From Moorena producens (GTDB lineage: Bacteria > Cyanobacteriota > Cyanobacteriia > Cyanobacteriales > Coleofasciculaceae), in NCBI RefSeq assembly GCF_965240435.1, contig NZ_CBDEKO010000003.1: a stretch of 64,000 nucleotides of DNA; one strand, 5' to 3'. A program made the position numbers and the translations under genes. Of the stretch, positions 1 to 32,053 are shown piece after piece (the first letter of the stretch is position 1; every line of letters begins with the position of its first letter). The notes under the pieces are model-generated. The model saw only the letters and a program-made list of their open reading frames with translations. It was not told where the DNA came from and did no database searches.

Positions 1-686
1 CGTGGTTTGCGCTTGCCCGTATGCAAATATGTGGTCACTCTCATCTGGACATTCTCAATAGCACTTTCCTGAATGGAGACATCAAGATGTTGGCCTTCAC
101 CTCCATCCCCACGCTGAAACAGTGCCATCAGGGTGCCCAAGTAGGCATACATACCAGCCGTGTACTGGCTAACAGCTGGTCCGGAGGCCAACGGTGGCTT
201 ATCTGTATCACCCGTTGACTCCATGCAGCCACTCATGGCGTATAGAATCGCTTCATTGGTTTGATAATCCCGATACGGCCCATTTTGACCAAAATTAGAA
301 ATAGAGGTCATGACAATAGCAGGATTAATCTCTTTAACCTCATCGTAACTTAACCCTAGCTTAGGCATAATAGTGGGAGCAAAATTCTCGACTAAAACAT
401 CTGCCTCTGCAATCAGTTGTTTGAGGATTTCAATTCCCTTTGGTGTTTCGAGATCAAGAGTTACACTTTTTTTCCCCCCGTTGAGCCAATGAAAAGGAAT
501 ACTTCGCTCAATACCTGGTTTGTTGCCTACGAATGGGCTTATGTGTCGAACGGGATCGCCACTGCTAGGTGATTCAACTTTTATAACCTCAGCACCAAAC
601 CCAGCTAAGAGCTTTGTACAATATGGACCCGCTATATATTGAGTCAAATCGATAACTTTTAAATCAGACAAAGCACCTTGGCTCAT
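1..686 (-). CDS. CoA-transferase family III (CaiB/BaiF-like), gene 3' end cut by window edge
   Basis: By-eye minus-strand translation from ATG (complement of 684-686, preceded by GGAGA RBS) gives MSQGALSDLKVIDLTQYIAGPYCTKLLAGFGAEVIKVESP...GRYRDYQTNEA..., typical of family III CoA transferases. Absent from the ORF track because it runs off position 1. Confidence 0.65.
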   Translation of the reverse strand, partial: MSQGALSDLKVIDLTQYIAGPYCTKLLAGFGAEVIKVESPSSGDPVRHISPFVGNKPGIERSIPFHWLNGGKKSVTLDLETPKGIEILKQLIAEADVLVENFAPTIMPKLGLSYDEVKEINPAIVMTSISNFGQNGPYRDYQTNEAILYAMSGCMESTGDTDKPPLASGPAVSQYTAGMYAYLGTLMALFQRGDGGEGQHLDVSIQESAIENVQMRVTTYLHTGKRKP

Positions 687-794
687 TACTTCTCCTTTTT
701 GTTCGGAAAATTTACTATTAAAAATGTTAAATATCGAGGTATGATATTCCTGGTAACTATCAATTTATATCGGTTGTTTCAGCGTCAAAATCCG

Positions 795-1541
795 TTAGTC
801 AATCCGCAGCCGATGTTCGTAAAGTTTTTGGTAATAAGGCAAGCAATATTTGTAGGCTTGCTTTAAGCGATCGTTATCCTCCACCGTTTCATAGTTGTTT
901 TCTTTCTGCTTTCGTTCTCTTAACCCCTTGCTAGTCTTAACAGAACTATGCCACAACCCATCTTGCCAGTGGTTAATTTCTGGTCGAGATTTTGGTGCCC
1001 AACTTAAGGCTTCTGGAATAAAACGGATCCCCACTGCATCACAATATGCTTTAATGGTTGCATCTGGCTGTTCGAGCAGATCATCAGAGTCGATTAAGAT
1101 GGGTGTTTTACCACTAATATCTCCAGCCATCATAAAGTAACGATACAAAGGTTCATACCCAGTTTCTTCTAGGGTGAAATCTGGCCATAGGTAGTGCAAT
1201 GAAGGAAGCATTTTAGCTGGATCTCTTATCAAAAACGTGTTATCTAACTCAGCCACAAATTCAGGTTCTATTAAATTGCTGATATAGTAGGGCATATCTT
1301 TGATAAACACCTTGTGCTGTTTGGCTTCTTCCCGCAACCTTTCCCTTGTGGCTTGATAGTTATACTCAGCTTTGATTTCAGCATCTGGATAACGATTGGT
1401 ATTGCGCCGTTCTTCGCTATTGTAAAATGAAAGACCATAGGGTTCGTGGAAAACCAGAAAATCTCCTCGTTCTCGCATCATGCACTCAAAGGCAGTAGAT
1501 CGAGTGCGAAAGTTAGTCCACAGGGCTAAAATTTTACTCAT
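795..1541 (-). CDS. Sulfotransferase family protein
   Basis: ORF track 248 aa. N-terminal RTRSTAF resembles the PAPS 5'-phosphosulfate-binding loop, and a later LIRDPAKMLPSLHY resembles the 3'-phosphate-binding motif of the Sulfotransfer_3 family. Confidence 0.55.
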   Translation of the reverse strand: MSKILALWTNFRTRSTAFECMMRERGDFLVFHEPYGLSFYNSEERRNTNRYPDAEIKAEYNYQATRERLREEAKQHKVFIKDMPYYISNLIEPEFVAELDNTFLIRDPAKMLPSLHYLWPDFTLEETGYEPLYRYFMMAGDISGKTPILIDSDDLLEQPDATIKAYCDAVGIRFIPEALSWAPKSRPEINHWQDGLWHSSVKTSKGLRERKQKENNYETVEDNDRLKQAYKYCLPYYQKLYEHRLRID

Positions 1542-1574
1542 GATTCTGTCTGATCTTTGGTTATATGCAAATCA

Positions 1575-2675
1575 TTAATACACCGCGATCGCTTCACCCA
1601 AAACATCAAGTATTGGCTCTACACCAAGCCCTGGAGCTTCTGGCGCAAAAGTCTTACCCCCTTGATTCCGCGCACCACCTGTAGCTGTGTCAATTGTGAG
1701 CATATCATGGCATAACCAAGTTGCCCGCAAGTGGGTTTCTGGGGTACTCTGAGCCAGATGTACAGCTCCCGTATCTGCAATTACACTACCACCAGTTTCT
1801 TCAATGTTCATCCGAATCCCCGTTTCCACACAAAAATCTCGGATGCGCTTGGCTTTAGTTAATCCTCCAACCCGATTAATCTTCAGGCCAATAGCCTCAC
1901 AAGCACGGTCACCTTGAGCGCGGACAATATCGCCATACCGCTGAATACATTCATCGAGGATAATGGGATGAGAAGTTACTTGACGCAGTTGCAGACATTC
2001 TTCATAGGTTTCACAGGGCTGTTCAAAATACAGAATTGGCTCGGTTACTGAGTTCATCACCCGCATCCCTTCATCTACTAACCAAGCTCGATTTACATCG
2101 AAAGTTGCACTTTCATTGGCAGGTAAATAAGCACCAATCGCTTTGATTCTCTCAATGTCTAGAGCCACATCTGCTCCAATCTTACAAGTATGGACGATGT
2201 AGCCTTTTTCTTGACCCCTTTTAATGGATTCAATCATTTCCTCTGGGGTACCCGTGGGAACAGAATTTTGGATGGTTATGGCTTGGTCGATACGACCACC
2301 AAATAGTTCACACAGAGGCAATCCCGTTGCTTTACCCAAGATATCCCAACAAGCCATATCTAGAGCAGATTTAATATAGGGATGACCTGGTAGAGCAATA
2401 TCCATCGTCCGATAGATTAAATCAGTGCGTCTGGGATCTAATCCCAGGAGTTGAGGGGCTAACTCTTCAATTCCAGCCCTGATACCCCGCCCAAAAGCAG
2501 GTAAATAAGTGGAACCCCAAGGGCATCCTTCTCCCCAACCTCGGATTCCTTCATCTGTATCGATAGCAACGATGGTGGAATCAAGTTTATCAAAGTACAA
2601 CCTACCTCCTGATAGTCGGTAAGGATGCTCTAGGGGTAAGGTGACTTGATAGACAGAAATTCGTGATATTTTCAT
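1575..2675 (-). CDS. Mandelate racemase/muconate lactonizing enzyme (enolase superfamily) protein
   Basis: ORF track 366 aa. Capping domain plus TIM barrel with a KIGADV...LDECI...acid-residue pattern typical of MR/MLE-like dipeptide epimerases/dehydratases. Confidence 0.7.
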   Translation of the reverse strand: MKISRISVYQVTLPLEHPYRLSGGRLYFDKLDSTIVAIDTDEGIRGWGEGCPWGSTYLPAFGRGIRAGIEELAPQLLGLDPRRTDLIYRTMDIALPGHPYIKSALDMACWDILGKATGLPLCELFGGRIDQAITIQNSVPTGTPEEMIESIKRGQEKGYIVHTCKIGADVALDIERIKAIGAYLPANESATFDVNRAWLVDEGMRVMNSVTEPILYFEQPCETYEECLQLRQVTSHPIILDECIQRYGDIVRAQGDRACEAIGLKINRVGGLTKAKRIRDFCVETGIRMNIEETGGSVIADTGAVHLAQSTPETHLRATWLCHDMLTIDTATGGARNQGGKTFAPEAPGLGVEPILDVLGEAIAVY

Positions 2676-2682
2676 AATATTT

Positions 2683-3567
2683 TTAACTTCTTTTTAAACT
2701 AACGAAGTTATGGGGAATAATCTCACCATCTTTAAGAACTTTAGCCATTTTATAGCCCAGGTCAGTTTGAACATCCTTACTAGTAGCTTCTATGAGGGAG
2801 TATGTCCCCTCAAGTAAAACTTTTGAGTGGCGGGATTGAGAATCTACGAAACGCATCACGTATGCCATCCTCGATGGCAATGGTCCCGCTTTTAAGGCAC
2901 AGCTTTTGTGCCAAACAAATTTGTCTAGCAAAAGGGCATCACCGACTTCAAAGTCATCTTCTAATTGATTATTTTCCAAAAGAAAAGTTTCCATATGATC
3001 AGCAAATTGGAAATCATAATTATTCAAATCTTCAGTTTTCAATAATTCTTCAAATTTATTCTGTTGTACTAATTGGTAAATAAAATTAAAATACTCACGG
3101 GCAGAATAAACTTGGCGAGACACATAGGCCATGCCTCCGTGTTGCTCTTTTGTATTAATCGGATCGAGGGGAATCCAGAGGGTATATCCTAAATCCTCTG
3201 GCCTAATGTAACAAAAGGAGTAAATGTCATGATGCCAAGGGAATCCTTTCTGATTTGCTTTTATCTCAAATGCGATTCCTTGCATGAAAGTTAGTCCGTT
3301 ATGGGCTAATTGTTTCATAACATATTGAAAATTCCTTGAAGAATAGATATCGTGTGTTACCCTTTCCTCAACGTCATAACCGATTTTTGAAACTTCTCCA
3401 GAGTAAAACCTGGGAGGGTTTTTCATTTGATTGGAGTTAGATGTTAGCTTCCGTAATTGAGCGGTAGCTTCACTTGTAAACAGTTTTTTGAGTTTGATAA
3501 ATCCATTCTCTGAAAAAGACTGTTTATCGTCTTGGGATAGAGTAATTTTATTGACTAATAAACCCAT
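2683..3567 (-). CDS. Phytanoyl-CoA dioxygenase (PhyH)-like Fe(II)/2-oxoglutarate dioxygenase
   Basis: ORF track 294 aa. WHHD (HxD iron-binding motif) and a distal H are present. The length and layout resemble the PhyH family. Confidence 0.55.
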   Translation of the reverse strand: MGLLVNKITLSQDDKQSFSENGFIKLKKLFTSEATAQLRKLTSNSNQMKNPPRFYSGEVSKIGYDVEERVTHDIYSSRNFQYVMKQLAHNGLTFMQGIAFEIKANQKGFPWHHDIYSFCYIRPEDLGYTLWIPLDPINTKEQHGGMAYVSRQVYSAREYFNFIYQLVQQNKFEELLKTEDLNNYDFQFADHMETFLLENNQLEDDFEVGDALLLDKFVWHKSCALKAGPLPSRMAYVMRFVDSQSRHSKVLLEGTYSLIEATSKDVQTDLGYKMAKVLKDGEIIPHNFVSLKRS

Positions 3568-3680
3568 GTAATTTAATTCTATTTATGTTATGGTTTTCAG
3601 CTCACCTTAAAATAATCATTGCTACCTTTACTAATTACACAGATAATCAGCCTATTCAAATCAACTTTAAACTATTGATT

Positions 3681-4994
3681 TTAAGCACTAAGATGTGCGA
3701 GAAATTTGGTTATGACTGGAAGCTTGGCTTGGCTGCCAAAATTAAAGGATTTTATCTTCTCAACAATTTCTGGATTAGGTTGATAAGTATCAATATTATC
3801 AGATACCCAACAGGTTCCAACACTCCAACGAATCACATCCACTAATAATTCATCGGTCAGTCCCATATTTTTTCCTAACTGATTAGCTTCCCCTAAGACT
3901 AAGTAATTAATATAAGCCATAAAATCCGTCAGAGATTGAGCAATATCCATTAACTTCTCATCTTCTAATGGTTCCGGCGGTGCATATTCTAATTGATAGG
4001 GAAGAGGTTTAATTCGCCCAAAACTATCCTTTACTCTTTCTTCAGAATGAACGTAACTCCGATCTAAACCATAAGGAGAAGGAGCCGTAAAACCAGGTAG
4101 CCGCAAATCTAAATTATTGTCTTCTTCAACTAATTTAGTGACTTTCACATGATTATCATGGGCTTCATATTTTTGCCCCGCTTCCCGATATCGCTCTTCA
4201 ACAATACGCCCTAGAGGTAAAGGAACATTCAGTTCATCAGCTAATTTTACCGTTAAATCCGTATCTTTTACCGTAATTTCTAAGGAACAGGAATAATCAT
4301 AACTGCCATCAAAAATAAAGGGGGTTACTTGCTCTGTCACCACACTATTCCCTTTGGACGATCGGATATAATCCCACATCCATAGCATATTTATATTATT
4401 GATTTTACATATCATCAGAGCTTCCCCTAATGTCAACATTTGCGCATAAAATAACAAGTTGGTTAACAGTTTTACAGTTTGAGCTTCACCAATGGTGTTA
4501 CTAACAAAGAAAGAAATTTTTCCAATCCCATCGAGGGTTTCTTTACTGAGATCGTAGCCTTCCCGATCTCCACTAACATAGAAACTAGCATTACAAAAAT
4601 CTACACCCATGTGGGAGAGATTGCTCACGGGAGATTCTAAACTGAATAGTCCTTTTTTAGCTGCTTCTTGTGCTATATGTTGAGTGTTATGGTAGTCAGT
4701 TGTGGAGAAATCCATCCAAGTTGCACCAGGTCTCATGCCTTCTACTGCCCCAGTTTCTCCTAACATATTTTCTAATACATGATGGGGTAAGGGTAAATTG
4801 GTAATCACCAGATCGGCACCTTGAGCAACTTCCTTGGCACTATCTTTCCAAACTGCTCCTGCTGCGATCACTGTTTTTGCGGCTTCTGGATACTTATCAT
4901 AAACTTGAACTTGATACCCATCCTTCAGCAGTTTGTATATCTGCTGTTTGCCCATGGCTCCTGTACCAATATAGCCAATTTTTTGCTTAGTCAT
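3681..4994 (-). CDS. NAD(P)-dependent beta-hydroxyacid (3-hydroxyisobutyrate/6PGDH-like) dehydrogenase with ~150-aa C-terminal extension
   Basis: ORF track 437 aa. N-terminal IGYIGTGAMG Rossmann motif. The C-terminal ~70 aa is homologous to the gene remnant at 8762-8974. Confidence 0.6.
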   Translation of the reverse strand: MTKQKIGYIGTGAMGKQQIYKLLKDGYQVQVYDKYPEAAKTVIAAGAVWKDSAKEVAQGADLVITNLPLPHHVLENMLGETGAVEGMRPGATWMDFSTTDYHNTQHIAQEAAKKGLFSLESPVSNLSHMGVDFCNASFYVSGDREGYDLSKETLDGIGKISFFVSNTIGEAQTVKLLTNLLFYAQMLTLGEALMICKINNINMLWMWDYIRSSKGNSVVTEQVTPFIFDGSYDYSCSLEITVKDTDLTVKLADELNVPLPLGRIVEERYREAGQKYEAHDNHVKVTKLVEEDNNLDLRLPGFTAPSPYGLDRSYVHSEERVKDSFGRIKPLPYQLEYAPPEPLEDEKLMDIAQSLTDFMAYINYLVLGEANQLGKNMGLTDELLVDVIRWSVGTCWVSDNIDTYQPNPEIVEKIKSFNFGSQAKLPVITKFLAHLSA

Positions 4995-5059
4995 AATATC
5001 CTAATTGTGTCAGAATTTGTTAATTGCTATCAGTGTTTAAAGGTGATCCAATTCGCAGT

Positions 5060-6130
5060 TTATAGTTGCTCTAAAGTAATGACAACTTTACCACAGAAGC
5101 TTTTGCTTTGGAAAAACGTTTGAGCGGCATGGATTTGAGAAAGGGGAAAAGTTTTATAAACTACTGGTTTCAAACGATTGTTATTAATATAATTGACTAA
5201 ATTTTGAAATACTGTGGCTTCCATGCGAGTAGCACCAATCATTTCTAAATCTTTGTAAATGAGTTCCCTTAAGTCAAGTTGGACGAGGGGCCCGGCAATG
5301 GCACCACAGCTCACATACCTTCCTCCCACTTTCAGCTTCTTGAGTAATTGTGGAAAATACACTCCACCAACAGTATCAAGATATGCCGTAATGGGATGAT
5401 GATCTAAAGAATCATTTAAATTTTTGTTGCGATCATAAACAAAATCTGCTCCAAGTTTCTGGACAAAGGCTTGCTTAGTGTGGCTTGCGATCGCAATTAC
5501 CGTCGCCCCCCGCAGTTTGCACAGTTGAATCAAAGCACTGCCTACTCCTCCAGAAGCGCCCATAATCAGTACCGTATCAGTGGCAGTAATGCGACCTTTG
5601 ACCAGCATATTTTCGGCGGTGGAATAGGAGCAGGGAAAGCAGGCCAGTTCAAGGTCAGATAGGGGTGAGTGGATTGGATAAACGTTGGAAGCGGGAATAA
5701 CTGCATATTCCGCAAAGCCGCCATCTACTTCGCTGCCAACATAGCGATCGCTTCCAGAAGACTCAGCTCGAATCCAGGGATCCACCATCACCCTTTGCTC
5801 CAGCAGCTTGGGGTCAACATCGACACCGACCTCAACCACTTTGCCAACAATATCAGCCCCTTGAATCCGAGGAAATTGGATTGCGGTTTGTCCCCAACCA
5901 GTGGAAGTATGAATAGTTGTTGTGGCGGTATCTTGCAGAACCGCTTCAAACTCCTGTTCTGCGGTATACCAGCCCGTGCGGGTGTTCAAGTCCGTGTTAT
6001 TCACAGAACAAGCTCCCACTTGAATCAGAACCTCTCCCGCTTGGGGCGAGGGTTTAGCCACTTGGGTATAAACTAATTTGTCCGCTCCTCCGTGGCCAGT
6101 AAGAAGAGCCGCATTCATGAGCTGGGTCAT
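5060..6130 (-). CDS. Medium-chain dehydrogenase/reductase (zinc-binding alcohol dehydrogenase / quinone oxidoreductase family)
   Basis: ORF track 356 aa. GroES-like N-terminus and a GASGGVGS cofactor-binding motif. Confidence 0.7.
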   Translation of the reverse strand: MTQLMNAALLTGHGGADKLVYTQVAKPSPQAGEVLIQVGACSVNNTDLNTRTGWYTAEQEFEAVLQDTATTTIHTSTGWGQTAIQFPRIQGADIVGKVVEVGVDVDPKLLEQRVMVDPWIRAESSGSDRYVGSEVDGGFAEYAVIPASNVYPIHSPLSDLELACFPCSYSTAENMLVKGRITATDTVLIMGASGGVGSALIQLCKLRGATVIAIASHTKQAFVQKLGADFVYDRNKNLNDSLDHHPITAYLDTVGGVYFPQLLKKLKVGGRYVSCGAIAGPLVQLDLRELIYKDLEMIGATRMEATVFQNLVNYINNNRLKPVVYKTFPLSQIHAAQTFFQSKSFCGKVVITLEQL

Positions 6131-6268
6131 CAGAAAAACTCCGGGAGTTTGGAAACCGCCGACTTCTAGTCACAGCAAAGGGCTTACACCGGAATTCATC
6201 TGTCCGCCTCCCTGGAGACTCCCGCTATAATCTTTGATTTAGCGGTGAGAGGAAAGGGAGGACAGGGT

Positions 6269-7543
6269 TTAAATTGTATAGGCATAACCATCCTTTTTGT
6301 GAATTGGCTGACAATATTTATGACTAATTCCTTGAATCAATCCGTTAGCAGTTGAAATATTGAATGACCCGGTTTTGCGAGTGGCAACCCGTCCAACGTA
6401 AGTTCCAATTTTCTTGCCTTTAGTGACAACTGCTTTGACAATATCTCCGGTCTGAAAACCTTTGTGAATCTTAGTTATTGAACAGTACCTCTTCGGAAAA
6501 CCGAACTTATCTGTTCGGCAGATTTGACGAGTTCCGTGACCTTTAGCCTCAATCAATAGAGGTTGATAATTCTCAACATAAATGCTTTGAACATTCCCCA
6601 CACAGGCGGCATCAAGCCAATGTGTTTTAGGTAGGTTAAACCGACACCGATTGTATTTAGTACGACCTCCCGAACCGGTTTCTAATGGGTTACCGGTAGA
6701 TTTGAGTTCTTTGTAAAGCTTCCAGCGAGTAGCATTAACCGCAGCAGCATCAGCTAAAGGTCGTTTGGCTTGAGACAGAATTCGTTTCAAAACATCAGGC
6801 TTCCCTGACAAGAACTGTTTAATCTCCTGGTTTCCTTTAGCCTGATTACAATCGTGACAAGCAATTGCCAGATTGCTAACTCTGTCGGAACCCCCTAAAG
6901 ATTTGGGCTTGATATGTTCGATTTCCAACTTGGTATCCGTTGTACCACAGTAAGCGCATTTACGGTTCCATTTTTCAAGCAAGTATTCTCGAATTTCGTA
7001 GCCGTACAATGTACCTTGCTGATACTCAGTACCAGAGATTTCTGGGTTTTCCATCTTCTGAGTGTCAAACCGTACCAACTCCTGAGAAATACCCGCTATC
7101 GGACAAAACCGAATCAGTTTTTTAACCCAAGTCAGGATGTTATGAACTCTAGACATTAAACTAGGCGCTAACCACCTCTCGGGACGTTTCCGATTAAGAA
7201 AGCGAGGTTTTCTATAACGAGTTTTACGGTTACGGCGAGAACGTCTTAATTGTCGTCTTGAGGTTAAAGCATCTCGGATTTGGAATCCACGATGCGTTAT
7301 TTCAGCACCCCAAATAACAGTGTTATTTTGCCGAATTGCTAAACCTGTTGTTTTTGCACCTGGGTCAATTTTTAACTGGTGATGATGAGTAGTACAGTTT
7401 TCTACCTCCAAATCTGACAGGATGATTGTAAATGGATACCTTCTAAACACTTTGGCTCTACCTTGTTTGAGCAATAATCTAGCTCTGGCGGGACGACAAG
7501 GGTCTAGTGTTTTAAGGTTTTTATCGAGTACAAAAACACGCAT
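6269..7543 (-). CDS. iscB: IscB, OMEGA RNA-guided HNH/RuvC nuclease
   Basis: ORF track 424 aa. N-terminal PLMP-like domain (MRVFVLDKNLKTLDPCRPARARLL...RRYPFTI). RuvC-I IDPGAKTTGLA. Arg-rich bridge helix RRQLRRSRRNRKTRYRKPRF. RuvC-II E. HNH block CAYCG...EIEHIKPKSLGGSDRVSNLAIACHDCNQAKGN. RuvC-III HWLDAAC. C-terminal TI-like domain. All catalytic residues appear intact. Confidence 0.85.
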   Translation of the reverse strand: MRVFVLDKNLKTLDPCRPARARLLLKQGRAKVFRRYPFTIILSDLEVENCTTHHHQLKIDPGAKTTGLAIRQNNTVIWGAEITHRGFQIRDALTSRRQLRRSRRNRKTRYRKPRFLNRKRPERWLAPSLMSRVHNILTWVKKLIRFCPIAGISQELVRFDTQKMENPEISGTEYQQGTLYGYEIREYLLEKWNRKCAYCGTTDTKLEIEHIKPKSLGGSDRVSNLAIACHDCNQAKGNQEIKQFLSGKPDVLKRILSQAKRPLADAAAVNATRWKLYKELKSTGNPLETGSGGRTKYNRCRFNLPKTHWLDAACVGNVQSIYVENYQPLLIEAKGHGTRQICRTDKFGFPKRYCSITKIHKGFQTGDIVKAVVTKGKKIGTYVGRVATRKTGSFNISTANGLIQGISHKYCQPIHKKDGYAYTI

Positions 7544-7860
7544 AATCGTGTTTCTCTCCTATTACTAGGGTGAAGTTCGCTGAGTGCTTCGCACACGCTT
7601 GCGCGAACGCCAATGTTTTTTGAGTTTGTCTTGCTAATAGCACTGTCCTAACCCGTTTACGACTGTTTAACTATTAACCACAGAGCAAAAGACTAGCGAC
7701 GCATCTAAGGGTGTGATAGCTCAAAAAACGGAGTACTTCGAGTACTTAGGCTGGTCACGTTATGAGCTTTTTCAAGCCCCCGTTATACCGCGATTAGCGG
7801 TTAACGGTGGGTTCGTGACTTCCAGTGCTGATCAGCCCCTTAGGCTGGATTGAACTAAAA
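7544..7860 (-). ncRNA. Candidate omegaRNA (IscB guide-RNA scaffold) directly 5' of iscB
   Basis: About 400 bp of non-coding sequence between the iscB start and the upstream gene, rich in stems on the minus strand (gttcgcgcaagcgtgtgcgaagc...gcgaac; gagtacttcgagtac palindrome). Direct repeat ctaaaaaaactc(aaa/aac) near 7850-7880 may mark the element boundary and guide-adjacent end. The 5' extent is unknown. Confidence 0.4.
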
Positions 7861-7977
7861 AAACTCAAACTAAAAAAACTCAACAAATACACCAGCTAAG
7901 GCGATCATATTGGCTTTCATTGTTCAACCCAACCTACGGGCTTCGCAACTTATAGTGCTGCGCTTACCATTCAGCGT

Positions 7978-8667
7978 TTAACAAACCCTAAAAGCCCAGT
8001 AGTGAGCACCTTCTTCAGCAATGTAAGGGCCGTCAATAATGGAGCTGACAAGCTTGGCCTTGTTTTGAGCTTGGAGTTGATCGCAAACCCCTTGAAAATC
8101 TGTGCTGTCGTAATAACTTTTACGAGTACTCACAACCACTAATCCCCCCGGCTTAGTAAAGCGAATCATTTCTTCGAGGGCTGTGGGAGGCACATGACCG
8201 AGGGTGAAAACTCCACAACTAATCGCAGCATCATAGCGATTATCCGGGTAGGTTTCGATGGGTTTAGTCATATCGCATCCTCCGGTTAAATTGCGATAAG
8301 CCTCGGTTTTTTCAGCTTCTTCAACCATGCCATGGGACAAATCAAACCCATCAACATTTTGATAGCCTTTGCGACGTAAAGCAATACCGACAAGGCCGGT
8401 ACCACAGCCTGCATCTAAAATTTCGATTTTCCGATTGCGTAAATTCAGAAACTTCCCATCGTGCTTGGGTAACAAATCCAAATAGGCAGCAATGTAATCC
8501 GGGCCACAATAGTCTTCATTATCCACATCTTGGTCATAGGCCCTTGACCATTGATCGTAGTATTGCTTAAGATCTTCAGCCTTTCCAGAAAGCTTGTGGG
8601 CTTCCTTAATCGCATCAAAACTATTAACTGTCTTAGCACTTTTGGGTTCAGCAATGGTTGTCGTCAA
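7978..8667 (-). CDS. Class I SAM-dependent methyltransferase
   Basis: ORF track 229 aa. Motif I ILDAGCGTG, and an acidic post-I motif. Confidence 0.7.
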   Translation of the reverse strand: MTTTIAEPKSAKTVNSFDAIKEAHKLSGKAEDLKQYYDQWSRAYDQDVDNEDYCGPDYIAAYLDLLPKHDGKFLNLRNRKIEILDAGCGTGLVGIALRRKGYQNVDGFDLSHGMVEEAEKTEAYRNLTGGCDMTKPIETYPDNRYDAAISCGVFTLGHVPPTALEEMIRFTKPGGLVVVSTRKSYYDSTDFQGVCDQLQAQNKAKLVSSIIDGPYIAEEGAHYWAFRVC

Positions 8668-8761
8668 AATAAATACCTCTTGTTGTTGACAACTTGTGAC
8701 ATCTCTGAAAGGGAGAGGGCGACAAGGTAAATATCAGCCCAACTCCTATTAAAAGAAACCT

Positions 8762-8974
8762 CTAGTGCGGAAGAGTTGCAAGAATTTTAGTCATCATCGG
8801 GTGATAAACCGCATGACAACATTGTTTTCCAAAGTCGAACTGCTTAATCTTGGCTAGGGATGGTTGGTCAGGATAATCGGAATCCTCGTGATCAGAGACC
8901 CGACTGGTAGCACAGCTCCACCAGATAACTTCCTTTAAGAGGTCTCTCGTTAAGCCCATATTTATCCCTAGCAT
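8762..8974 (-). pseudogene. Remnant (C-terminal ~70 aa) of a paralog of the dehydrogenase gene at 3681-4994
   Basis: LGINMGLTRDLLKEVIWWSCATSRVSD...KIKQFDFG aligns with LGKNMGLTDELLVDVIRWSVGTCWVSD...KIKSFNFG at the C-terminus of the 437-aa protein. No upstream homologous frame was seen. Confidence 0.5.
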
Positions 8975-9591
8975 TTAGGCCTCTTGTAGAATAACATACT
9001 TTGGGAAAGTGACAAATTTTTTGAGTGCTTTTGCGATTTCGTTCGTGCTGTAATCTAGCTATCACAAGGGATAGTTGTAGTTTTACAAAATTTTACGTTG
9101 GCCTCGGCGATAGTTGCTCTTCACTATCAACTGGGGGGCAATACCTATAGTATGTATCAATCCCATGAGGTACTTAAGCCGGTGAATTTTAGGGAGTAGG
9201 GAGTAGTGACGGCTGCCCCGACATGAAGGGGCTTCACCCATCACCGACTACATCAAGACAGGGATAATAAACTTGAATGTACTTGATAAGTAAAATTAAC
9301 GCTATAGTCTCGATTGACATGAGATTTTATCGGAGTTTGCGATTTTATTAAGTACATAGTTCTTAGTTTTAACGGAGTAAGAATTCCCCCTAACCCCCCT
9401 TAGGCGTTAGGCTGTGAGTCAAATATACAAATAATCAGAAACAGTTGGAGACAGTTGGTAACGATCGCCTCAATGGTCTATTTTCTTAGTCTGATTGGGA
9501 ATCACTGCGCCTCGTAAAAGCTCTACAATCTAACCGTAGCCCCATTCCTCGTGGCCTTAGCTAACACAAACGCTATGCCCGCAAATCTGTC

Positions 9592-31817: not shown

Positions 31818-32000
31818 TCAGCTGTCAGCCCTCAGCTGTCAGCTGAATGGTTACAAAGATGGTAGTCATGAATTTGCGATCGCTAGCCAACGCCCTTCGG
31901 GCTAATCGCCTTTGGCGCGGCTGAGGCCTTTGGCCACGCTGCGCGTTCGCGTAGCGTCGGCTTTGCCGAAACGCCGATGAAGCGAAGCTTCCGCGCTTAT
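31818..32000. repeat. Intergenic repeat block (cagctgtcagc tandem units, gcgatcgc HIP1 sites, ggcctttggcc palindrome)
   Basis: Read directly. Confidence 0.75.
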
Positions 32001-32053
32001 GCGATCGCAAATTCATTGATTAGGCTTTCTATGGTGAACAAGGAATAATCGCC

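Follow-up and report, generated by a model that had tools for sequence, protein, structure and literature searches.

A probable non-autonomous IS200/IS605-family insertion sequence encoding an omegaRNA and IscB in Moorena producens, and its empty allele

We analyzed a 64,000-nt stretch of DNA from Moorena producens (contig NZ_CBDEKO010000003.1 of the NCBI RefSeq assembly GCF_965240435.1; this whole stretch is called the window, and positions are counted from its first letter), in which an earlier note, made from the letters alone, had pointed to an iscB gene with a structured leader at 6131-7960. On the minus strand of this region, between a methyltransferase gene (upstream and co-oriented, with its stop at 7978, 158 nt away) and a dehydrogenase gene (downstream), lies an element that carries an omegaRNA of the HEARO family followed by the gene of IscB, an RNA-guided nuclease ancestral to Cas9. 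Taken together, the results below make it very probable that 6200-7819 (minus strand) is a non-autonomous insertion sequence (IS) of the IS200/IS605 family (ISC type) carrying omegaRNA (HEARO), then IscB. The features of the locus are the following:

6200 to 7819, minus strand: mobile element of 1620 bp, delimited by the ends of inter-copy homology and by alignment to an empty site.
7820 to 7835, minus strand: presumed guide segment CTGATCAGCACTGGAA, host DNA directly 5' of the omegaRNA scaffold and outside the transposon.
7553 to 7819, minus strand: omegaRNA scaffold of about 267 nt, including a 27-nt insertion; the part matched by Rfam is 7588-7819, and the exact 3' end is putative.
7582 to 7608, minus strand: 27-nt insertion GTTCGCGCAAGCGTGTGCGAAGCACTC, able to fold into a hairpin, located where the 3' tail of the omegaRNA is single-stranded, right after the pseudoknot strand.
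6269 to 7543, minus strand: iscB open reading frame (ORF) of 424 amino acids plus stop, with PLMP-like, RuvC-I, bridge helix, RuvC-II, HNH, RuvC-III and C-terminal beta-barrel (TI-like) regions.
6200 to 6265, minus strand: far-end terminal hairpin (the left end on the plus strand), long and imperfect, with GGGAGG in its 3' arm 7 nt before the target-adjacent motif (TAM).
6195 to 6199, minus strand: putative TAM in host DNA, ATGAA (TTCAT on the plus strand), with the core ATGA.

Related copies were collected by scanning one genome per species, which yielded 80 loci encoding IscB relatives (individual loci and contigs are given as L plus a number). When the region was compared with these loci by BLAST, homology began exactly at 7819 in many independent copies, and a base-level comparison of 12 copies showed that GTCACGAACCC was common to them from 7819 onward and that the sequence 5' of GTCACGAACCC was unrelated. 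At the far end, the related copies ended in ...G followed by ATGA (in some of them GTGA or ATGG), with unrelated sequence after it; the window copy reads ...GGACAG/ATGA. Alignment to related copies, which the earlier note had proposed (for copies in the same genome) as a means of defining the ends and the guide, thus placed one junction at 7819/7820 and the far end at 6200. The interval 6131-7960 proposed in that note does contain the element, but overshoots its true extent by 69 nt and 141 nt.

Look-ups of IscB and of the two flanking proteins by exact sequence gave no match. An empty site was reached by a homolog search with the downstream dehydrogenase, which found a 97%-identical protein encoded on contig L081. 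The spacer between the methyltransferase and dehydrogenase genes measures 227 bp in L081 versus 1847 bp in the window, and 8007..7820 fused to 6199..6101 aligned to the L081 spacer without gaps, with 284 of 287 positions identical. The insertion point falls between ...CTGATCAGCACTGGAA and ATGAATTCC..., and a target-site duplication is absent, L081 being exactly the left flank plus the right flank. Because no bases recur across either junction and there is no target-site duplication, the boundaries of the element are unambiguous. The filled and the empty alleles therefore differ by exactly 1620 bp, which makes them a very clean natural example. A second empty site, L082, has a spacer too diverged to inform the boundaries.

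The element terminates in GTCACG... and ...GGACAG, which do not form inverted repeats, and both subterminal regions are structured, with a hairpin at the far end and the P1 region of the omegaRNA at the other. Read on the plus strand, the order is TTCAT, left-end hairpin, iscB (reverse), omegaRNA (reverse) and flank. The earlier note had put the omegaRNA at the left end of the IS; in the convention of Meers et al. the omegaRNA end is the right end (RE), and the target and TAM are at the other end. Folded as DNA, the far-end hairpin had an energy of -15.9 kcal/mol (z -4.25) on the minus strand and -16.4 kcal/mol (z -3.99) on the plus strand; its arms are conserved, and compensatory changes are visible in L030, L034, L002 and L014. 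By analogy with IS200/IS605 biology, it would be the hairpin recognized by the TnpA transposase. In one M. bouillonii IscB element, a 103-nt insertion resembling a miniature inverted-repeat transposable element (L005:5327-5429), with inverted termini (GACAGTTGAGCCTT ... AAGGCTCAACTGTC), breaks the far-end hairpin.

The host sequence next to the two ends was then considered as target and guide. We compared 39 junctions, namely those with an RTGR locatable near the end of homology; since the search for them used ATGA, GTGA or ATGG, the frequencies are in part a product of the selection. At the first four host positions, the bases were A (35) or G (4), T (39), G (39), and A (32) or G (7), with ATGA in 28 of the 39 and unrelated sequence beyond. 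TTCAT is the TAM of the Geobacillus stearothermophilus IscB and TnpB elements (Meers et al.). At the opposite end, the boundary between conserved and variable sequence fell at HEARO model position 1 in 12 copies, and nothing was conserved 5' of the omegaRNA end. The 16 nt that adjoin this boundary in the window, a guide length taken from characterised IscBs, are host DNA and occur only once in the window. The empty allele L081 contains a perfect 16-nt match to this guide with ATGAA, present once in that site, directly after it.

Other repeats near the guide were examined as well. The earlier note had suggested that a direct repeat could mark the junction of element and guide. The repeat exists, as a perfect 15-nt tandem duplication (AACTAAAAAAACTCA twice, 7853-7867 and 7868-7882, plus strand; it contains CTAAAAAAACTC at 7855-7866 and 7870-7881) in the host spacer, but it does not mark that junction, which is at 7819/7820: the duplication lies 34-63 nt outside the element. 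Because the empty-site relative L081 carries the same duplication with one mismatch, the duplication is older than the insertion and has no connection with it. A 10-mer, CTTAGGCTGG on the plus strand and CCAGCCTAAG on the minus strand, is found twice, at 7745-7754 in the omegaRNA pseudoknot strand and at 7839-7848 in the flanking host DNA, immediately 5' of the guide, and the host-flank occurrence is also in the empty site. We rejected this sharing as meaningful, such 10-mers being at chance level in the region. In the reconstructed empty site (7820-7828 plus 6186-6199, minus strand; L081:2575-2600), a 9-bp hairpin (GCACTGGAA / TTCCGGTGT; DNA fold z -2.8) has a 5-nt loop that is exactly the TAM ATGAA, so that the element is inserted at the stem-loop junction. 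Insertion into hairpin loops was discarded as a general rule, the flanks of L002 and L014 having no such hairpin by eye; we treated the hairpin around the TAM as a single case, which may be a coincidence.

The protein encoded by the element is an intact IscB with its motifs in the order that the earlier note had described. The Pfam RRXRR model (PF14239) matched residues 3-177 over profile positions 1-174 of 174 (E-value 1.1e-73), and three HNH models (PF01844, PF14279 and PF13395) matched residues 196-239. The IscB motifs follow one another as LDPC (13-16, PLMP-like), IDPGA (59-63), an Arg-rich helix (96-115), ISQELVRFD (152-160), CAYC (196-199), EIEHI (207-211), CHDCN (229-233) and HWLDAA (308-313). 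Sequence matches in the PDB were TbaIscB (5e-44), HfmIscB (6e-28) and OgeuIscB (6e-26). The claim that the catalytic residues are not degenerate also held: in a residue-level alignment to 7XHT, D60, E155, H210, H308 and D311 pair with OgeuIscB D61, E193, H247, H340 and D343, respectively. In an alignment of 46 homologs, D60, E155, H210 and H308 are invariant and D311 is conserved in at least 90%, and the four cysteines of both zinc pairs (C196, C199, C229 and C232) and N233 are invariant too.

An AlphaFold2 model of the protein (mean predicted local distance difference test score, pLDDT, 71) had as its best PDB matches IscB-omegaRNA-target DNA complexes (8CSZ, E-value 2e-24), then IsrB and small Cas9s, and the full-length fold alignment to 8CSZ spanned both chains. 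None of the PDB sequence matches extended past residue ~325. Residues 321-424, folded alone (104 residues), formed a small beta-barrel in which the core blocks of the fragment, 41-100, had pLDDT 80-91, and this model makes it plausible that the C-terminal domain is a TI domain. The ratio of nonsynonymous to synonymous substitution rates (dN/dS) of iscB was 0.06-0.14 against paralogs, and 0.12 against the 98.5%-identical copy L083. Because of the low ratios against paralogs, we consider that IscB is maintained by selection.

Relative to L004, the iscB genes of L007 (4819-4842) and L013 (4214-4237) contain different 24-nt in-frame insertions; that of L007, TTCGCGTAGCGTCGCCAACGGCGA, adds SRSVANGE, and its L013 counterpart is GCGCTTTGGGGCAGGCTACGGGAA. 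The motif of these insertions, CGTTCGC-GTAG-CGT with a short hairpin, recurs at L005:436, L008:1210, L013:668 and L029:5036, and it is also found in the window in a GC-rich repeat cluster at ~31880-32010 (plus strand) flanked by HIP1 sites. It may resemble the 'small dispersed repeats' of Elhai. It resembles the GTAG-tagged repetitive extragenic palindromes of cyanobacteria as well (PMC3733652).

HEARO is said to have been described by Weinberg et al. in 2009. It has been in Rfam since 2009-2011, and subsequent work identified it as the omegaRNA of IscB (published OMEGA papers). A scan of the whole window with Rfam gave a single match, HEARO RF02033 at 7588-7819 (minus strand), with 126.6 bits against a gathering threshold of 83 (E-value 8.4e-28; model positions 1-211 of 211). 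This bears out the earlier note, which had expected an omegaRNA immediately 5' of iscB and had named the covariance-model search as a check: HEARO adjoins iscB, whose ATG is at 7543, on its upstream side, and all 17 related copies scanned, most of them cyanobacterial, have a full-length HEARO directly upstream of iscB. RNAalifold analysis of 17 copies yielded 41 base pairs, 30 of which show changes on both sides while pairing is kept (covariation term -10.1 kcal/mol), and both the HEARO pseudoknot and the multistem junction are supported by covariation.

RF02033 is without the downstream structural elements (Meers et al.). In the window, a terminal hairpin at 7558-7569 (CCUA-GUAA-UAGG) lies 3' of the part that Rfam models and overlaps the AGGAG ribosome-binding site at 7556-7560; by eye, its sequence varies across copies and its pairing is kept (CCC/GGG, CCA/TGG, CUGA/UCAG). 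Because the conserved 3' tail and this hairpin extend past the Rfam model, we set the end of the scaffold at ~7553. The leader of ~400 bp in the earlier note is thereby reduced to about 267 nt of scaffold plus ~16 nt of guide: 7544-7977 is intergenic and structured, and its part at 7836-7960 is plain host intergenic DNA. In the Prochloron locus L048, two HEARO matches lie on opposite strands ~3 kb apart (6834-7062, minus strand, 87.6 bits; 3744-3966, plus strand, 141.6 bits); the locus may therefore hold another element, or an omegaRNA on its own, near the first.

With the 27-nt insertion, the tail of the omegaRNA gains a stable hairpin of 8 bp (-18.1 versus -4.2 kcal/mol for the tail region), and owing to the insertion the Rfam alignment of the window copy ends early, at 7588, relative to L002. 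It is not an abundant repeat, occurring once in the window and elsewhere seen only in L001 and L007. The insertion in L007 is identical to that of the window, though the remaining L007 omegaRNA is only ~73% identical. Sequence comparison suggests that the inserts in the omegaRNA tail arise by site-specific nano-insertion or by gene conversion between copies. In Tolypothrix (L028) and Scytonema (L068), this position of the omegaRNA is occupied by other inserts, which begin with GCGTTCGCGAAGCG.

Copies that are 98.5-98.9% identical at the nucleotide level are located at three different sites, namely in the window, in L001 (a metagenome-assembled genome of Moorena sp. SIO3I8) and in L083 (the complete genome of M. 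producens PAL-8-15-08-1). These near-identical copies, together with the empty allele, indicate recent transposition. Carriers of the 27-nt insertion are at different sites, and therefore the element moved after gaining it. The 1620-bp element has no room for tnpA. Because no tnpA is present, we regard it as non-autonomous, and its transposase would have to be provided from elsewhere in the genome. Most iscB elements are non-autonomous (Meers et al. and the published OMEGA paper).

We infer how the element works from the characterised family (Altae-Tran 2021; Meers 2023); what was computed here is its anatomy, its scarless insertion by ATGA, and an empty allele with guide match and TAM. IscB elements are biased toward co-orientation with the upstream gene, and their omegaRNA is bounded by RE (Meers et al.). 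This bias fits the window, where the methyltransferase gene is co-oriented and crude consensus scans that were not tuned to cyanobacteria predicted no sigma-70-like promoter and no terminator-like site between it and the element. Transcription of this upstream gene would probably read through into the omegaRNA, and the transcript would be processed into an omegaRNA whose 5' ~16 nt, CTGATCAGCACTGGAA, derive from the host flank and serve as the guide. The IscB-omegaRNA complex would recognize a match to CTGATCAGCACTGGAA only when the ATGA(A) TAM comes next; the target strand would be cut by the HNH domain and its partner by RuvC. Where the element is in place, GTCA, which belongs to the element itself, comes after the guide match, and the match would escape cutting. 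Match and TAM would adjoin again once a TnpA acting in trans had excised the element, or on a sister chromosome that lacks it; this site would be cut and repaired from an occupied copy, so that the element would be restored (retention or homing). With a perfect guide match and TAM in the empty allele, this model is directly testable in a polyploid cyanobacterium, and the two alleles offer a ready-made target and TAM pair for a compact (424-aa) IscB ortholog.

Several points weigh against this reading or limit it. No Y1 TnpA was found in the element, the window or ~0.6 Mb of related loci, in searches that had no positive control (a six-frame scan of the window for HUH and Y motifs, and tblastn of the window and the 80 loci with two TnpA queries, IS200 and ISHp608); the earlier note had likewise seen no tnpA, and none was found within or beside the element. 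The isolated C-terminal domain had HfmIscB, DtIsrB and TbaIscB as its three best fold matches, which are weak (E-values 0.02-0.07, template modelling scores 0.45-0.50). The guide length, the omegaRNA 3' end, the processing and the TAM requirement are those we infer from relatives, and the expression, processing, cleavage and homing proposed for this ortholog are carried over by analogy. Finally, the GTTCGCGCAAGCGTGTGCGAAGCACTC insertion is present in the window, L001 and L007 and absent from the sister copies L002, L014 and L004, and the HEARO score of the window copy is lower than the 143-144 bits of the uninserted L002 and L014. The negative TnpA searches and the insertion in the RNA with its lower score would fit an inactive relic, in which the ORF and the RNA look intact but RNA-guided nuclease function has been lost, perhaps because the 27-nt insertion disrupts the ribonucleoprotein or because no compatible TnpA is available, with slow decay since. 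We consider a relic unlikely. The dN/dS values given above, 0.12 even against L083, the conservation of D60, E155, H210, H308 and D311, and the presence of insertion-bearing copies at three different sites, which implies movement after the insertion was acquired, all speak against it; moreover, the insertion lies in a region that the model leaves unpaired and interrupts no modelled helix.

The position of the element between two co-oriented host genes, where co-transcription is possible, and the Shine-Dalgarno (SD)-like GGGAGG at its far end, which faces the downstream gene, could also fit a domesticated copy that serves the host, for instance through control of the expression of the flanking methyltransferase and dehydrogenase cluster or in defence, rather than a selfish one. 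This is very improbable, since presence of the insertion varies between strains (it is missing from one whose host genes are 97% identical and whose spacer is 99% identical), the same element is found in multiple copies at unrelated sites, and the guide is the local flank, as for a passive transposon, with no other match in the window. Least probable is that the leader is a riboswitch-like cis-acting 5' untranslated region (UTR) that regulates iscB translation and not a trans-acting guide RNA. The overlap of the terminal hairpin with the ribosome-binding site is in keeping with such a regulator, and HEARO was first described only as a structured RNA beside an HNH ORF; solved IscB-omegaRNA-DNA complexes and published biochemistry, however, make HEARO a guide RNA, and the sharp switch from conserved to variable sequence right at model position 1 agrees with a guide junction. 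One RNA could nonetheless have both roles. A non-autonomous insertion sequence with an omegaRNA and IscB thus remains the reading we prefer.

The element is of a known kind, an intact and ordinary copy of the IscB/OMEGA family. Judged by sequence, its protein is already known, the protein cluster being named 'RNA-guided endonuclease IscB' by NCBI and a 99%-identical protein being in GenBank, and since the family is well characterised, IscB and the omegaRNA themselves hold very little that is new. OgeuIscB (PDB 7XHT, 7UTN and 8CSZ), TbaIscB (9K30) and HfmIscB (9K2Z) have the same domain order, with the omegaRNA immediately 5' of the ORF. The window protein is ~20% identical to OgeuIscB and shorter (424 versus 496 aa), and its PLMP motif reads LDPC, unlike in OgeuIscB-type systems. 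Its putative TAM, read from the junctions as ATGA(A), differs from the NWRRNA given for OgeuIscB (PMC12660989). Compared with HEARO RF02033, the window copy is a full-length match but has the extra 27-nt hairpin in the 3' tail and the terminal hairpin past the model end. A parallel in organization is ISGst IscB/TnpB of Geobacillus stearothermophilus (Meers et al. 2023), likewise a non-autonomous element of IS200/IS605 type with an omegaRNA bounded by RE and co-orientation with the upstream gene. Its TAM TTCAT is 5' of the left end (LE), as ATGAA is in the window element, and the role proposed there is cutting of the excision joint for retention. ISGst differs in belonging to another phylum, in its distant sequence, and in that its cognate TnpA has been identified and tested, whereas none was found for the window element. 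The Moorena paralog P0241 (L083; M. producens PAL-8-15-08-1, CP017599) shares 99% protein identity and 98.5% nucleotide identity over the element, with the same ends and TAM, but its site is before the start codon of a Xaa-Pro aminopeptidase gene instead of a methyltransferase-dehydrogenase spacer.

The first base past the element in L083 is the annotated start of that aminopeptidase gene. We therefore asked of the other copies whether the ATG of the TAM is a host start codon, using 38 junctions resolved by where inter-copy homology stops. The junction ATG opened an ORF of at least 80 codons in 19 of the 38, compared with a rate of 24% where these motifs occur at other places in the host flanks (p 5e-4). 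Twenty junction ORFs (these 19 and one of 70 codons) were compared with family profiles, and 15 of them aligned from residue 1-16 to profile position 1-13. Profile-confirmed gene starts thus make up 15/38 junctions, versus 4.7% start-like sites among control RTGR sites (p = 7e-11). The 15 junctions are at different host genes throughout, among them MutS2, PFK, FolC, PpsR, YicC, RmlC and Xaa-Pro aminopeptidase, across cyanobacteria, Anaerolineae and Gammaproteobacteria, and include the following positions:

L083:6390, L015:1728, L024:4403, L046:5399, L044:3644, L070:5462, L075:5401 and L080:1306: start-codon junctions.

SD-like sequences (GGAG, GAGG or AGGA) were present 5-18 nt before the junction ATG in 18/39 junctions, the window subfamily included. 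GGAGG or GAGG was found 7-9 nt before the TAM ATG in the window (6200-6215, minus strand) and in L017, L021, L016, L038, L046, L039 and L069, which belong to cyanobacterial and Anaerolineae subfamilies. Neither the gammaproteobacterial subfamily (...CCCGCGCAAAATCTG/ATGA) nor the Moorena subfamily ending in ...CCCCTATTTTTTTG/ATGA has the SD-like motif. The window copy itself is an exception to the start-codon placement: its ATGA (6196-6199) opens an ORF of 9 codons, and the ATG of the dehydrogenase is 66 nt further. These data raise the tentative possibility, which we hold as rather doubtful for now, that elements of the IscB/HEARO clade preferentially sit exactly before host start codons, so that the ATG-A of the TAM is the initiation codon of a gene co-oriented with iscB. 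Such a placement would put the element in a transcribed 5' UTR, where host transcription would supply the omegaRNA with its external guide, and in several subfamilies, including that of the window, the displaced gene could regain translation through the SD-like GGAGG located 7-9 nt from the end of the element. The 2009 HEARO paper is said to have perhaps noted integration upstream of ATGA or GTGA. In the OMEGA literature accessible to us, we found no mention of the association. It is the one lead here that might reach past what is known; if confirmed and new, the tendency would explain how an element with an external guide secures its transcription and limits damage to the host.

The host genes around the element were also examined. 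A co-oriented accessory cluster, observed within positions 1-9000 of the window (minus strand) and in L081 and L082, surrounds the element and comprises the methyltransferase, the Zn-dehydrogenase and a 6-phosphogluconate-dehydrogenase-like NAD-binding protein. For the Zn-dehydrogenase, the one flanking gene searched, the closest relatives in named Moorena genomes are only ~67% identical. We considered transfer of the element between genera, given ~67% identity to Moorena for this flanking gene versus 99% for the element, and ruled it out because the valyl-tRNA synthetase of the host is 94-97% identical to those of several Moorena species; the flanking genes are accessory. In L081, the cluster additionally encodes a CmcI-type methyltransferase, a PhyH-like dioxygenase, an MR/MLE enolase, a sulfotransferase and a CoA-transferase, and the accessory genes around the element may form a cluster for small-molecule modification.

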